Assembly (NCBI RefSeq): GCF_041248615.1
Contig: NZ_CP158426.1
Source: Escherichia coli
Lineage (GTDB): Bacteria; Pseudomonadota; Gammaproteobacteria; Enterobacterales; Enterobacteriaceae
Strand: one strand, 5' to 3'
DNA length: 64,000 nt
The position numbers were made by a program, and so were the translations under genes. Positions 13,035 to 32,071 of the stretch are shown one piece after another; the stretch's first letter is position 1; each line of letters begins with the position of its first letter. Below the pieces are notes generated by a model that saw only the letters and a list, made by a program, of their open reading frames with translations, had not been told where the DNA came from and searched no databases.

Positions 13035-13058
13035 ATTATGTACACCCTTATGTACACG
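13035..13058. repeat. Left island-boundary direct repeat (att-like), ATTATGTACACCCTTATGTACACG
   Basis: 22/24 identity in direct orientation with 32048-32071; contains tandem ATGTACAC motifs. Confidence 0.6.
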
Positions 13059-13442
13059 GTTTTTTCGGGTGCTTTGGCCAGAAGCCATTGTCTACATCCC
13101 TCACGATCGAGGTGTGTAACCATGTTCAGGCTTGTTGTCCTGCGCGCGCGTATTGCTCGTGAAATTGCTGTAACCAATAGTGATGTCCGAAAAAACCTCC
13201 GTTCTCACATGAAACAGCCATGTGCAACTGGTAACTGAATAGACTGGTAGACCGTTCGTTCAGTAAATACCTGATATTTTCGCCAACGAGAAATTGCGTT
13301 GGCTGGCAGAGTACAAATTTGCACGATGACCTAACCCATTGATTTTTTCGAAAACCTACAATGCAGGAAGCCGGATAACACCATTTTTATAGCTCCGATC
13401 CCTTCAAAGTGAGGGGGAATTTGCCAAAACAGAGAGAGAGCA

Positions 13443-13730
13443 TTACTGTCTCTGGCAATCTTTATCGCGATAACGCCTGAAGTACCCTCTCGCTTCCTCA
13501 TCCATACCAAGAGCCGAATGAGTCCGCTTAACTGCCTGTCTTAAATCTCCGAATCTGTCTGTAGTTGCTGGTGGGCGTGCCGCCTTACGGATACATTCAG
13601 AGCGTCTGTTTGCTGCATGTTCACGTTCTTTATCGCCATCTGCCAGCATCATGACTTCTGCCCATCGTGCGGCAGCTCTCCGGTATAGCCCTTTTGACTC
13701 CAGCTCTTCAGCTTTCCTGTCCCTTATCAT
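13443..13730 (-). CDS. small hypothetical protein, possibly PerC-family transcriptional activator-like
   Basis: 95-aa basic protein MIRDRKAEELESKGLYRRAAARWAEV; resemblance to PerC/Pch proteins is from memory of the family pattern only. Confidence 0.45.
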   Translation of the reverse strand: MIRDRKAEELESKGLYRRAAARWAEVMMLADGDKEREHAANRRSECIRKAARPPATTDRFGDLRQAVKRTHSALGMDEEARGYFRRYRDKDCQRQ

Positions 13731-13763
13731 TTCTGCCTCTCAGATTATATAGATAAGCAAAAA

Positions 13764-13887
13764 GGTGTTGGTTCAGTTGGTTCAGTTGGTTCAATTTGTA
13801 AAGATCGTTGTTTTTATTGTGTTTTTTCTGAAATGTTGAACCAACATCAACTCATTTTGAACCAACACAGCCCAGCTCTGAACCAAC
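13764..13887. repeat. Iteron cluster A: 3 direct GTTGGTTCA units, AT-rich spacer, 3 inverted TGAACCAAC units
   Basis: Direct units at 13767-13793, inverted units at 13836-13844, 13858-13866, 13879-13887; same architecture as 22056-22169. Confidence 0.85.
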
Positions 13888-13989
13888 AACACAGCGATAG
13901 CTTTGTGATTGGTCCGTTATTTTCTGGCTGATATTTGAGCGTATAACAGTGTTATACAGTGGTATACTGTATGGATATTACTCACTGAT

Positions 13990-14430
13990 ATGGTCTTTGC
14001 AATGAGCAAATCTAATCTGATCGCGTTCCGCATCCCATCTGAATTGCAGGATGAGTTTAATCGGTCTGTTCTCGCTTCTGGAGGGGATAAAACCTCCTGG
14101 CTTGTTGATGCGATTCGCATGAAGCTGGGACAGCCGGAAAAGTCTATTGATTCACGAATGCTTGGGCTGGTGGAGCGCATGGAAAAAGCCGCAGCATCGC
14201 TTATTGCCGGAAAGCCGAACATCCCACCAAAGCCATATAACGAAACGGCAGTTATAAAGATCATTGCCGATACCATCCGACAGGGATTTGATAATGGGCG
14301 TGTGATAGCGGAACGGCTCAATGAAGCAGGCTACCAAACAAAAGCTGGTAAAGCGTGGGATAAAGACATTTACAGCGCGTGGAAGCGTCAGGGTAACAAT
14401 ATTAAAAGAATCAATACGCTGCTTCAGTAA
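13990..14430 (+). CDS. putative DNA-binding protein (ribbon-helix-helix-like N-terminus, recombinase-domain-like C-terminus)
   Basis: 146-aa ORF; N-terminal IAFRIPSELQDEFNRS...SWLVDAIRMKL pattern; C-terminal LNEAGYQTKAGKAWDKDIYSAWKRQ like the DNA-binding segment of serine-recombinase accessory domains; start may be the ATG at 14002. Confidence 0.5.
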   Translation: MVFAMSKSNLIAFRIPSELQDEFNRSVLASGGDKTSWLVDAIRMKLGQPEKSIDSRMLGLVERMEKAAASLIAGKPNIPPKPYNETAVIKIIADTIRQGFDNGRVIAERLNEAGYQTKAGKAWDKDIYSAWKRQGNNIKRINTLLQ

Positions 14431-29385: not shown

Positions 29386-29603
29386 CAGGCCACCTTCCCG
29401 CGGCGTTCTGCCAGCCAGTTATTAATTTCCACCGCATCAAACGCAGTCACGTTATCTGTTAGCTTCACTGGGCGTGGAAGAGTGCCATTTTTAACCCATC
29501 TATCAATAGTAGGCAGTGAAACACCTAGCAATTCCGGCATGCGAAAGCGACGGATGTATCCAGTTGTTGGGATAGCTGATGATGCTGGCTTGTGTGCTGT
29601 CAT
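29385..29603 (-). CDS. alpA: AlpA-family (prophage CP4-57-type) helix-turn-helix regulator
   Basis: 72-aa ORF with AlpA-like core RMPELLGVSLPTIDRWVKNGTLPRPVKL...EINNWLAER; first gene leftward of an AT-rich promoter region. Confidence 0.75.
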   Translation of the reverse strand: MTAHKPASSAIPTTGYIRRFRMPELLGVSLPTIDRWVKNGTLPRPVKLTDNVTAFDAVEINNWLAERRGKVA

Positions 29604-30074
29604 ATCTCTAGTAACCTCTCTGATAGCTCATGAAGTTACTTAAAGTTTAGTGGTTGCCCATACAGTATTTCTATTAAGACTAGAATCTATTGAAAGAAAT
29701 TATAAATCTATTGAAAAAATACCGATCCACTGAAAGATTGCAAATGCAGGTGGGATAATTATTTTCTTTATTTTCAATTAGTTACCAGTTTAAAAAATCA
29801 TTGTTTTATCAAAGAGTTATATCTTTCATCGTCATTCATCATGTTTTTACATTTCTTTTTATCTTTTATTATTCAATTGGTTGAGTCGGTTTATAATGGC
29901 TCATGATGGCTTAAAATGGCTAATGATAGCTGGCGTATCTTTTAGAGATGGGGTGATTACAGATGAACTAAGCCGAACAGATATAGCAATGGCTAGGCAT
30001 AGAATTATCTATGCTGGTGGAGATGGGTAAACAGGTAATGCCCCGCCATTGCTTTGGAGGGGCGTGAAAAGTGA

Positions 30075-30725
30075 TTAGTCGAGATCGTGGACAGCTAATA
30101 AAGCCCGTGAGATTTTTTCTAGGAATGTGGCTTTTGCTATTCCTTTATGGGATATCCCTTCATCCTTGATTAAGGTTTCTATGTCACGGTATATAGCTGT
30201 GCGATTAGGTTTCCCATTTTGGATGTAGGAAGATGAGCCTGATTTTTTTATCAGCAGATGTACTATCAACCCCATCATTTTCATTGTCCCGTTTTCCTCA
30301 TCCTGCTTTCTATGCTGCCCACGTCCGCTGCGGTTGGTTTCTTTGATGTAGTTTACTAACTGGAGTCCTCCAAGGTTTCGGGCTTTTTCTTCCCAGCCCT
30401 TGGTGCCACGCAAATCATCAATCGCTTCTGATATTTTCTGAACAATTATTTCTGGTGTATTTGTGTCAATAAATGGGTAAGAAGCTAAGAAAATATCAAG
30501 GGCATGGCAAGGCTCGTCTTTACTAGTTTTTTCACCTCTGTACACCTTGATAGCTCTGGCAAGATGAGTTCTGACAAAATCGACATATTCGAAATTTTCC
30601 TCAGGCACATCGCTAATGCGCATAGATGGGTTTAGGCCAGCCAAGGCCACAGCCATTTCATGAGGGGTAATCGATACAGATGAACAAAGCCGTTCGATTG
30701 GCGATTTTCTCAAGATGTTGTTCAC
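30075..30725 (-). CDS. hypothetical protein (216 aa) coupled to integrase 3' end
   Basis: GTG start overlaps integrase stop (GTGA); no motif recognised. Confidence 0.5.
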   Translation of the reverse strand: MNNILRKSPIERLCSSVSITPHEMAVALAGLNPSMRISDVPEENFEYVDFVRTHLARAIKVYRGEKTSKDEPCHALDIFLASYPFIDTNTPEIIVQKISEAIDDLRGTKGWEEKARNLGGLQLVNYIKETNRSGRGQHRKQDEENGTMKMMGLIVHLLIKKSGSSSYIQNGKPNRTAIYRDIETLIKDEGISHKGIAKATFLEKISRALLAVHDLD

Positions 30726-31990
30726 ATTTGCCTCCGGGCTTTATCGAATGGCGTTACGTTGTAGTCTTTCCCGCTTTCCAGTGCCACCAGCAGATCAGCC
30801 CACTGTGCCAGCGCAGCTTTACGCTCATCAAAATACTGATGGCGGTTATAAATCCCCTCCACACCCTTAATGCGATGATTGAGGCATCGTTCCGCTACGA
30901 CAGGATCAACACCCAATGCTGCTAAATGAGTACGTGCGGTACGCCGGAAGTCGTGAATCGTGAAATTAGGCACATCCGGCATTTCGGCGCGAACCTTAGC
31001 CAGTGCTACGGGTAAAGTGCTTTCCTGAATATGTGGGATCATTCTGTTTTGCATCTTCCTGGCTGGAAGCACCCATGCGCTATTACATGAAAAGGTGTGT
31101 AGCTCTCTCAACCATTCAACGGCTGGGGAAGGTAGAGGTATATCAATAGGGTCTCCGTTTTTGCTGCGTTCTTCCGGCAAATGCCATACCGCACCATCTA
31201 AATCAAACTCTTCCCATCGTGCGGCGCATAACTCCATCTTACGAACGCATAGTGCCAGCAATAGCTTAAATGTCAGTTCGTTCTGGCGGCTGAATCCTTT
31301 TGCGGTGCGCATAGCTTCGAATAGCCTGATAAGCTCATCGCGAGTTAGCCAACGGTCGCGGGAAACCTCTTTACCACCAGCATCAGATACTTCAAACGCT
31401 GAACAAGGGTTTATCTCCAGAGCGTGGCGTTTTATCCCATAGTCAAAGATACGGCGTGTCCAGCGTAATACATCTGTTGCTATCGTTGGTGCTCCTCGGT
31501 CAACGATACCTTTCAACATGTCGTCAATGTGGCGTGGCTTAACGTCCTCCACCTTCATATGCCCAATGCAGGGGTTAATATCCTTATCAATTCTCCGGCG
31601 AAGGATATCGGGATGTTTCCATCTTGGAAGTATCTGGCGCTCGAAGTATTCGGCGGCCAGATCTGAAACGCGCATGGCGTTTTTCTCAGCCTCCATTTTT
31701 GCCAGTGCTTCAGCTTTTCGTTCCTGTTTCTCTGCTGCTACGTCATAGCCAAGAGCAACTCTGGCTGACAGCTCTTTTGCTGTTTCTCTGGCTTTTGATA
31801 GTGACAGTTCGGAGTAAGAGCCTATAACCATAGCCCGCTGCTTTCCTGCGAGCTTATAGCGGAATCGCCAGAACGGGACTGTGTAGTTTTTTGGGTAGCA
31901 AATATAAAGGCCGTTGCCGTCTGCCTTGCCATCAAATCTGTCTCCCGCCTTTATCCATGCGCGGATCTGCATATCTGTGAGTTTTGGCAT
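30722..31990 (-). CDS. int: tyrosine integrase, P4-family (arm-binding N-terminal domain)
   Basis: ORF trimmed to MPKLTDMQIRAWIKAGDRF (about 422 aa); C-terminal catalytic region with HDFRRTARTHL and tyrosine near end; adjacent to island boundary. Confidence 0.85.
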   Translation of the reverse strand: MPKLTDMQIRAWIKAGDRFDGKADGNGLYICYPKNYTVPFWRFRYKLAGKQRAMVIGSYSELSLSKARETAKELSARVALGYDVAAEKQERKAEALAKMEAEKNAMRVSDLAAEYFERQILPRWKHPDILRRRIDKDINPCIGHMKVEDVKPRHIDDMLKGIVDRGAPTIATDVLRWTRRIFDYGIKRHALEINPCSAFEVSDAGGKEVSRDRWLTRDELIRLFEAMRTAKGFSRQNELTFKLLLALCVRKMELCAARWEEFDLDGAVWHLPEERSKNGDPIDIPLPSPAVEWLRELHTFSCNSAWVLPARKMQNRMIPHIQESTLPVALAKVRAEMPDVPNFTIHDFRRTARTHLAALGVDPVVAERCLNHRIKGVEGIYNRHQYFDERKAALAQWADLLVALESGKDYNVTPFDKARRQM

Positions 31991-32047
31991 TGCGAATACC
32001 TGAATATCGAATATGGGTGTGTACATAAAGCAATGTACATGAAAGTC

Positions 32048-32071
32048 ATTATGTACACCTCTATGTACACG
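32048..32071. repeat. Right island-boundary direct repeat (att-like), ATTATGTACACCTCTATGTACACG, with further TGTACAT motifs at 32020-32040
   Basis: 22/24 identity with 13035-13058; four TGTACA(T/C) copies between int start and repeat. Confidence 0.6.

Follow-up and report, generated by a model that had tools for sequence, protein, structure and literature searches.

How does a genomic island that encodes neither a capsid nor a terminase travel from one bacterium to another, and what does it do with four genes for proteins that belong in a phage virion? This question is raised by a block of DNA between dinD and yicC in Escherichia coli (contig NZ_CP158426.1). We analysed a stretch of 64,000 nucleotides around it (the window), which is 100% identical to the chromosome NZ_LT599825.1 of E. 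coli NRZ14408. Our answer, to which we would give a probability of about 70%, is that the block is a 19,225-bp phage-inducible chromosomal island (PICI) of the EcCIMP1 family, which is a satellite of P22-like podoviruses and sits in the 3' end of yicC. It would pass through a cycle of five steps: integration and excision, RNA-based repression, replication, packaging by the terminase of a helper, and entry through ejection proteins of its own.

EcCIMP1 is a PICI of E. coli MP1, and its helper is the P22-like phage vB_EcoP_Kapi1 (ISME J 2025, PMC11773190). It excises and circularises only upon Kapi1 induction, is transduced by Kapi1 at a very low rate and has no recognisable capsid-morphogenesis or terminase genes; its packaging mechanism was called hard to characterise, and its ejection-protein (E-protein) genes were treated as hypothetical candidates for a packaging role (PMC11773190). 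Our island is 98.6% identical to EcCIMP1 over positions 20137–27422 (7.3 kb) and 97.7% identical over 27479–29395 (1.9 kb), a core of about 9.2 kb. An earlier note on this DNA had taken the block for a satellite or PICI-type element, and the identity of the core to a PICI that has been shown experimentally to be induced and transduced by Kapi1 bears this out.

The two islands have the same gene order: the integrase gene (int), an AlpA-like helix-turn-helix (HTH) protein, orf143, an AntA/B antirepressor, DUF4222, the isrK/C4 ("Ash") region, small genes, a TOPRIM-DUF927 primase, homologues of P22 gp14, gp7, gp20 and gp16, and PerC. They differ in their target, which is the 3' end of yicC here and the tRNA-Thr next to proA in EcCIMP1, and their integrases are only 29% and their AlpA proteins 34% identical. 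The gp16 homologue has no BLASTP match in EcCIMP1, of gp20 only the first 187 residues can be aligned (48% identity), and the cargo differs, AbiD being carried by the NRZ14408 island. Within the EcCIMP1 family the antirepressor, the Ash region and the primase are conserved and int, AlpA and PerC are variable (PMC11773190). Our island has this conserved core but shares neither the integration module nor the att site. Judged by its sequence, it is a new member of the EcCIMP1 family of PICIs at a different integration site.

The four virion-related genes all lie on the minus strand. They encode a P22 gp14-type protein (DUF2824; 20968–21429; phrog_651, E = 1e-66), a gp7-type ejection protein (20297–20974; phrog_598, E = 3e-70; 98.7% identical to its EcCIMP1 homologue), a gp20-type ejection protein (18876–20297; phrog_917, E = 2e-110) and a gp16-type ejection (DNA transfer) protein (16771–18876; phrog_770, E = 8e-162). 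All four match their PHROGs over the full length. Genes 14-7-20-16 of P22-like phages belong to these four families, are arranged likewise and also overlap at their start and stop codons. Unlike those phages, the island has no coat, portal, terminase or tail genes, and its alleles were not found in 50,697 phage records. For these and all other gene calls we used PHROG and Pfam profiles, RefSeq annotation, NCBIfam, PADLOC for defence genes, Rfam for RNAs and ARAGORN for tRNAs. PHROG profile searches of the open reading frames (ORFs) of the island returned no capsid, portal, terminase, tail or lysis gene, and no island ORF matched a PHROG for psu, delta or sid. The statement of the earlier note that capsid, terminase and psu/sid/delta genes are missing is true of those genes, but it had overlooked the homologues of gp14, gp7, gp20 and gp16. 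NCBIfam gave no family for the four E-proteins, and PDB sequence searches with the gp20 and gp16 homologues gave no match.

The cassette appears to be maintained, and its alleles differ from those of known phages. Pairwise ratios of nonsynonymous to synonymous divergence (dN/dS) of the cassette genes within the family range from 0.06 to 0.30 (0.06 for gp14, 0.28–0.30 for gp20 and 0.15–0.17 for gp16) and are similar to those of the primase and antirepressor genes. By this measure the complete gp14-gp7-gp20-gp16 cassette is under purifying selection. A second lineage (IMG/VR loci L161 and L163), with a primase that is 75% identical and E-proteins that are 63–89% identical to ours, has kept all four ORFs although synonymous sites are saturated. 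The closest gp16 match among the phage records is 66.9% identical (phages N7 and HZ41), and the rest are at most 39% identical; the gp14-gp7 end of the cassette is 81–92% identical to some phages.

The assembly of NRZ14408 also contains a 41.3-kb record (NZ_LT599830.1, "phage_14408_1", our L004) that is a complete P22-like podovirus, with genes for coat, portal, gp4, gp10, needle, DUF2824, three DNA-transfer proteins and tailspike and an Arc/antirepressor region. For the ORF that follows gene 16 of this phage, the sole match is to a PHROG of unknown function. Identity between the E-proteins of the island and those of phage_14408_1 is 23% for gp14, 52% for gp7, 27% for gp20 and about 25–27% for gp16 beyond the first 56 residues. 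When the two gp16 genes are compared (16771–18876 and L004 27878–30046), an alignment is obtained only over these first 56 residues, with 75% identity. The gp20 alleles of the island and of EcCIMP1 are likewise common only at their N-terminal ends. Judging from such alignments, the conserved N-termini of gp16 and gp20 may be signals for incorporation or boundaries of recombination.

What could an island gain from such a cassette? Very divergent E-proteins can assemble into P22 virions and work; gp16 and gp20 must be a cognate pair, gp7 is interchangeable, mixed P22/Sf6 gp16-gp20 pairs assembled yet were non-functional, and mutations that escape SieA exclusion map to gp16 and gp20 (PMC10461980). 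Two observations on the islands fit these cognate-pair rules. One island variant at the yicC site retains just gp20 and gp16 of the cassette, and between our island and EcCIMP1 the C-terminal part of gp20 has been swapped together with gp16 as one unit. We favour the view that the cassette serves to control the entry of the satellite itself. The island gp14, gp7, gp20 and gp16 would be built into hijacked virions and would form the conduit for DNA delivery at the next infection, which would make the entry of the satellite independent of the E-protein alleles of the helper and perhaps resistant to SieA-type exclusion. This is the least certain step of the proposed cycle.

One could also argue that the cassette is a means of defence or interference, either by co-assembly of island gp16 and gp20 into helper virions that are mismatched and hence non-infectious, or by expression in the lysogen, where the proteins would block incoming P22-like phages. 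The mixed P22/Sf6 pairs that assemble but fail (PMC10461980) show how this might work, and the island gp16 and gp20 are, save for the first 56 residues of gp16, distant from those of phage_14408_1; AbiD on the same island would fit too. Nevertheless, gp14 and gp7 would be needless for interference, and according to the title and abstract of the EcCIMP1 study that island aids the replication of its helper (PMC11773190). We consider interference through mismatched gp16 and gp20 a live alternative, but on balance a rather unlikely one as the purpose of the cassette, and it does not exclude that the cassette controls entry.

If helper virions are to be filled with island DNA, the island has to be recognised by a foreign terminase. 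Packaging without a terminase of its own would be explained by mimics of the packaging (pac) sites of helpers, and there are three candidates. Site A (27599–27620, minus strand) is an exact 22-nt copy of nt 143–164 of the small terminase gene (terS) of the CUS-3 type, the type found in phage_14408_1. The 22-mer lies inside terS in 103 viral contigs, including phage_14408_1, and in an island context in 14. Site B (27685–27791, plus strand) comprises 107 bp that are homologous to nt 268–374 of the P22-type gene 3 (94/107 identical). It aligns with nt 4–110 of the P22 genome (NC_002371.2), which are annotated as pac, and the homology starts at the first base of GAAGATTTATCTGAAGTCGTTA, the P22 pac site (PMC5261728, PMC11447400). 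The corresponding 22-mer of the island, GAAGGTTTTTGTGGAGTCACTA, has six differences from GAAGATTTATCTGAAGTCGTTA and is identical to the 22-mer at nt 268–289 of a natural variant of the gp3-type terS (89.5% protein identity; three viral contigs).

Site C (15750–16235, minus strand) is a weaker candidate for a third mimic. It is a non-coding block with three TTTyGnGAC(A/C)AGTACGC units (at about 15820, 16053 and 16106) and is 96.5% identical to EcCIMP1 though both flanks differ. The motif matches nt 166–189 of the terS genes of Sf6 and Kapi1 and occurs neither in the other 44.7 kb of the window nor in the CUS-3-type phage. The Kapi1 small terminase protein (TerS) is of the Sf6 gp1 type (PDB 3HEF, E = 4e-92), which the CUS-3-type TerS resembles over the C-terminal 37 or so residues only. 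In our own reading, the Sf6-type and CUS-3-type motifs would both encode residues just after the HTH of TerS (...W-x5-6-F...), at equivalent positions of the two genes. Sites A and B and the Sf6-type motifs are present in EcCIMP1 as well as in our island. From these matches we regard all three sites as probable pac mimics, with less confidence for site C.

The second lineage adds to this picture. In L161 and L163 there are two compact arrays, each consisting of Sf6-type units, one to three gp3-type units of 29 bp and one CUS-3-type unit, in the same order and orientation. The gp3-type unit (GAAGAyTTTnnT....TCACyAyrCGAG) is the pac 22-mer with about seven further bases. The arrays stand elsewhere than site B does in our island, one preceding the RNA genes and one beyond gp16. 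Separately, a further pac-like 22-mer, AATGGTTTTTGTGGAGTCGCCA, occurs in our island at 19068–19089 (plus strand) inside the gp20 homologue; it matches the variant pac site at 18 of 22 positions with an exact core of 15 nt, and is rare in shuffled windows.

Could the E-protein genes and terS fragments simply be recombination scars, left on an otherwise ordinary integrative island by a P22-like prophage that has decayed, with no role in transfer? The genomes of P22-like phages show a high degree of mosaicism, some phages come close to the gp14-gp7 end of the cassette and the transduction of EcCIMP1 by Kapi1 is very low. We think that this is improbable, for the following reasons. First, the four ORFs are of full length and appear to be under purifying selection. 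Second, two lineages whose primases are 25% different have both kept the cassette. Third, no further structural or lysis genes of a phage are left in the island, and the phage-derived parts are confined to the ejection cassette and terS fragments of at most 107 bp, which is not what a defective P22-like prophage looks like. Fourth, in the second lineage the terS pieces are trimmed to the pac 22-mer and a few bases and are duplicated as variant arrays, which decay would not yield. Coat, portal and terL are in none of the 80 loci that contain a relative of the island primase.

If the island is a satellite, then one would hope to see it leave the chromosome. In the NRZ14408 assembly a separate record of 19,226 bp (NZ_LT599831.1, "phage_14408_2") is a circular permutation of the element, in which int is joined to the PerC end. 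The attP core of this free record, TTATTCGATATTCTGAATCTG, has the attR base at position 7 and the attL base at position 16 and is absent from the chromosome record. Such a chimeric core implies that strands were exchanged between core positions 7 and 16. Could the record instead be an artefact of assembly or curation, and the element inactive in NRZ14408? It is labelled merely "phage_14408_2", and its breakpoint (window 18647/18648) falls inside a gene. However, its length is exactly one unit, a few mismatches and six gap openings separate it from the chromosomal copy, as expected of an independently assembled consensus, and its recombinant core occurs nowhere in the chromosome record. An artefact is very unlikely, and the records indicate that the island is real and active in NRZ14408.

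We also looked for phage_14408_1 in the chromosome record of NRZ14408, but an integrated copy was not among the best matches. The record of this phage breaks inside terS, 63 nt from the 22-mer that it has in common with the island (site A). As a packaging end this would be only suggestive, and we draw no conclusion from the end of either record.

The exact ends of the element follow from a comparison with K-12, where yicC and dinD are neighbours, as the earlier note had stated. The yicC-dinD region of K-12 aligns with the window up to 12974 and then again from 32179, and the two alignments overlap by 21 bp. The true junction repeat is a core of 21 bp, TTATTCnATnTTCTGnATCTG, with copies at 12954–12974 (attL, TTATTCAATATTCTGAATCTG, on the dinD side) and 32179–32199 (attR, TTATTCGATATTCTGGATCTG), and it is also found at attP and attB. 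The core spans the stop codon and the last six codons of yicC (minus strand), and the C-terminus of the protein, QIQNIE*, is left unaltered by the insertion. ARAGORN finds no tRNA in the window, in agreement with the earlier note; the insertion targets a protein-coding gene at its 3' end. A hairpin and T-run terminator at 32112–32148, brought by the element, stands directly after the yicC stop and replaces the hairpin that K-12 has downstream of yicC.

The comparison thus upholds the claim of an insertion relative to K-12 (K-12 and most E. coli lack the block) but refutes the claim about its bounds. These had been placed at two imperfect 24-bp direct repeats, at 13035–13058 and 32048–32071, and the K-12 alignment puts the edges 81 bp to the left of 13035 and 128 bp to the right of 32071. 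The repeats are real, since 22 of their 24 positions agree and nothing comparable arose in 100 shuffles, but each is built of two copies of TATGTACAC and lies inside the element, 60 bp (attL side) or 107 bp (attR side) from the core. Two TATGTACAC repeats make up the P' arm (13035–13058, plus strand) and four TGTACA-type repeats, which include the right 24-bp repeat, the P arm (32019–32071). All five exact copies of TATGTACAC in the window fall in these two arms, which makes the earlier reading of the extra TGTACA copies as arm-type sites reasonable. Because TATGTACAC is confined to both arms and the integrase has an Arm-DNA-binding domain, the 24-bp repeats are themselves probably arm-type integrase sites. 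That the element should instead be 13035–32071, with the 24-bp repeats as att sites in the dinD-yicC intergenic region, can be dismissed with near certainty, for all their similarity beyond chance: K-12 colinearity ends and resumes elsewhere, in the free circular record the two ends meet at the 21-bp core, which has a 24-bp repeat on each side, and the 9-mer also occurs nearby in inverted orientation, as is typical of arm sites.

With these parts the proposed cycle can be spelled out. The arm-binding tyrosine integrase would recombine the 21-bp core over the yicC stop, with TATGTACAC repeats as the likely arm sites and with the AlpA-family protein probably acting as activator or in excision; what is seen directly are the sites and the recombinant attP. 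Repression would depend on the C4/CI-type and isrK-type RNAs upstream of the replication operon, which suggest an RNA-based immunity as in P1/P7 and P4. Upon release, the TOPRIM-DUF927 primase-helicase would act on two clusters of TGAACCAAC iterons that resemble ori and crr of P4. The terminase of a helper would then recognise a pac mimic and fill heads from concatemers of the island. Taking a P22-sized headful as roughly 43 kb, we estimate that with a unit of 19.2 kb a head would hold about 2.2 copies of the island. The E-proteins would serve in the last step, as described above.

How far can this model be trusted? Several points weigh against it. Among the 67 primase-relative loci with adequate flanks, the gp3-type pac-like 22-mer and the E-module occur both in 7, neither in 60 and only one in 0 (Fisher p = 1e-9), which speaks for a link between them, but the seven loci represent only two lineages and the p value overstates their independence. 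Site A-like and Sf6-type motifs are also present in some family members without the E-module, and the orientation of site B is opposite to that of the equivalent units in the divergent lineage. We know of no mapped pac site for an Sf6-type or a CUS-3-type terminase, and hence sites A and C rest on the analogy with P22. The breakpoint of the free record is not near the proposed pac sites. That island DNA or E-proteins are found in particles is something that we infer from sequence, and since EcCIMP1 is reported to aid its helper, the E-module could be of benefit without any competition with the helper. Finally, EcCIMP1 has the same sites A and B, yet Kapi1, the sole helper tested, transduces it poorly. 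This last point fits the model without proving it: the exact sites of EcCIMP1 match gp3-variant and CUS-3-type terminases and Kapi1 has the Sf6 type, so that under the model transfer by Kapi1 should be low. The model would also explain why a Kapi1-like prophage was present in only 2 of 21 EcCIMP1 strains (PMC11773190), and it predicts that there are much better helpers of EcCIMP1 than Kapi1.

A bolder proposal is that islands of the EcCIMP1 type make up a class of their own among satellites of P22-like podoviruses, with pac-mimic cassettes copied from the terS types of P22 gp3, CUS-3 and Sf6 and with an ejection conduit of their own (gp7, gp20 and gp16, with gp14) that is fitted to stolen virions. 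We put this forward tentatively, as something that we would not yet bet on. If it were true, satellites would mark pac sites that have not been mapped, at about nt 166–189 of gene 1 for the Sf6 type and about nt 143–167 for the CUS-3 type. It would also mean that the ejection conduit of a satellite decides which cells the satellite enters, for example lysogens protected by SieA, which would be a new way to control host entry. The study of the EcCIMP1 family left packaging open and the genes after the primase hypothetical; mimicry of the pac site that goes with the helper's TerS type is a specific and testable answer. As far as we have found, neither the pac-mimic cassettes nor a complete, selected ejection module in such an island has been described. 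Our literature searches on satellites with ejection proteins, on P22-like satellites and on islands at yicC/dinD gave no relevant description, and none of a satellite that brings its own ejection proteins.

The island also differs from other known satellites. It has the marks of a Gram-negative PICI, namely an integrase at one end, an AlpA regulator downstream of int, and its own primase with a putative iteron origin. No capsid, tail, terminase or lysis genes were found in it, but it has four virion-related genes that the classical definition of a PICI does not provide for. The Gram-negative PICIs EcCICFT073 and EcCIEDL933 have a core of int, AlpA and primase, a size of 10–20 kb and PerC-like cargo, and they depend on helpers (PMC11773190). 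Our island has this core, size range and PerC-like cargo in common with them, but no Rpp/cos module was recognised in it, it seems to rely on pac mimics for headful P22-like helpers and it has genes for ejection proteins. Those two PICIs reportedly use lambdoid cos helpers and redirect packaging with Rpp and a cos site (Fillol-Salom 2019). From capsid-forming PICIs (cfPICIs) the island is set apart by the absence of its own capsid, portal, protease and small terminase.

Two further comparisons are instructive. SaPIbov5-type islands reportedly carry a copy of the packaging site of their helper (Carpena et al. 2016), and there as here a satellite without its own terminase would be packaged via the recognition sequence of the helper. 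The difference is that there the sequence is the cos site of staphylococcal siphoviruses, and here there are several pac-type motifs, each of which matches a different TerS type, sometimes in arrays. With P4 the island has in common an arm-binding integrase, an AlpA-type regulator, a large primase-helicase with two separated iteron clusters (like ori and crr) and a C4/CI-type immunity RNA, with a 39-bp match to the P4 immunity region; the antirepressor would parallel P4 epsilon. Unlike P4, it shows no PHROG match to psu, delta or sid; no cos site was found either, though no search was aimed at one, and its helpers would be P22-like podoviruses rather than P2-like myoviruses.

How common are such islands? 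At least 80% of our 21-kb query is present in only 40 of 5,426 complete E. coli genomes, which together with the adjacency of yicC and dinD in K-12 means that the block is a genuine accessory insertion. Its replication and regulation core is found at a coverage of at least 80% in 351 complete genomes, and the ejection-cassette allele of the NRZ14408 island in 180. The yicC-dinD junction is intact in 4,192 of the 5,426 genomes, and in about 513 the yicC and dinD halves lie at separate places, from which we estimate that roughly 9% of complete genomes have something inserted at the 3' site of yicC. A figure of 23% occupancy was dropped, as many broken junctions are genomes without dinD in which yicC is next to yicG. 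dinD is itself accessory: yicC is directly followed by yicG in NZ_CP101210.1 (L214) and NZ_CM142778.1 (L215; locus 15338–17070). Since dinD is absent from some genomes, a broken junction is not always an insertion. In other strains the yicC site holds related islands with different cargo. The 3' end of yicC is marked as an integration site by the element, which carries AbiD and a PerC-type virulence regulator from one clinical E. coli to another.

The remaining genes and RNAs are as follows. On the minus strand, from the yicC side, the order is int, orf216, the AlpA-family HTH gene, orf143, the AntA/B antirepressor, DUF4222, a leader of about 370 bp, the isrK-type RNA, the C4/CI-type antisense RNA, Icd/"Ash", six small genes, the primase-helicase and six iterons. 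These are followed by a 53-codon ORF, the homologues of gp14, gp7, gp20 and gp16, a secreted-protein gene (plus strand), AbiD, a gene of unknown function, six further iterons and PerC. Profile and repeat searches confirm the integrase, AlpA-like HTH protein, antirepressor, Toprim primase-helicase and iterons that the earlier note had read from the sequence, and the defence and virulence-type cargo that it proposed is found in AbiD and the PerC-family regulator.

The tyrosine integrase (30722–31990, minus strand; Pfam Arm-DNA-bind_3, Phage_int_M and Phage_integrase) sits at one end of the element, and orf216 lies between it and the AlpA-family HTH regulator (29385–29603, minus strand), whose Pfam matches are HTH_17 and a modest one to Phage_AlpA (E = 6.9e-6). 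The AntA/AntB-type antirepressor (28108–28941, minus strand) matches phrog_5817 (E = 1e-37). Rfam identifies the isrK-type RNA (27482–27558, minus strand; RF01394, 63 bits, gathering score 50) and the C4/CI-type antisense immunity RNA (27370–27457, minus strand; RF01695, 80.2 bits, gathering score 45, E = 1e-14). A chain of six small overlapping genes (24935–26918, minus strand) lies upstream of the TOPRIM and DUF927 primase-helicase (22192–24951, minus strand; phrog_1139, E = 2e-178), which is 99.6% identical to the EcCIMP1 primase. The first iteron cluster (22056–22166), with six copies of TGAACCAAC and the probable origin, comes directly after the primase gene; the second, crr-like cluster (13767–13887) also has six, three per strand. 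The window contains 14 copies of TGAACCAAC where 0.55 are expected, and 12 of them are in these two clusters inside the island. The clusters are 8.3 kb apart and have the same layout, with three copies on each strand, which recalls ori and crr of P4.

At the other end of the element, the cargo consists of an AbiD-type abortive-infection protein (14460–15482, minus strand; PADLOC AbiD, E = 8e-58; phrog_2158) and a PerC-family regulator (13443–13730, minus strand; phrog_994 and transcriptional-activator PHROGs, RefSeq), which is 54% identical to the PerC-like protein of EcCIMP1. Next to the gp16 homologue, a gene at 16268–16708 (plus strand; phrog_2651) encodes a secreted protein of unknown function, whose translation has a signal peptide (...LLFASFGANA/EC...). 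The phrog_2651 protein is also present in the fS58a island, and it could be a periplasmic exclusion factor.

Two minor observations concern annotation and ancestry. The ORF that RefSeq annotates as an "ash family protein" (26911–27939, minus strand) overlies the C4 RNA, the isrK RNA and both pac-like sites A and B, and its matches to "Ash" PHROGs span residues 106–220, which is the DNA of the RNA genes. From this overlap, much of what is called the Ash "protein family" may be conserved immunity-RNA sequence read as protein. The annotation of EcCIMP1 labels this region Icd-like and a partial Ash pseudogene. Near the PerC end, a stretch of 60 bp (13330–13389) resembles, with 83% identity, both part of the gene for the KilAC antirepressor in phage_14408_1 (L004 5872–5931) and a segment of Kapi1 (13227–13286).

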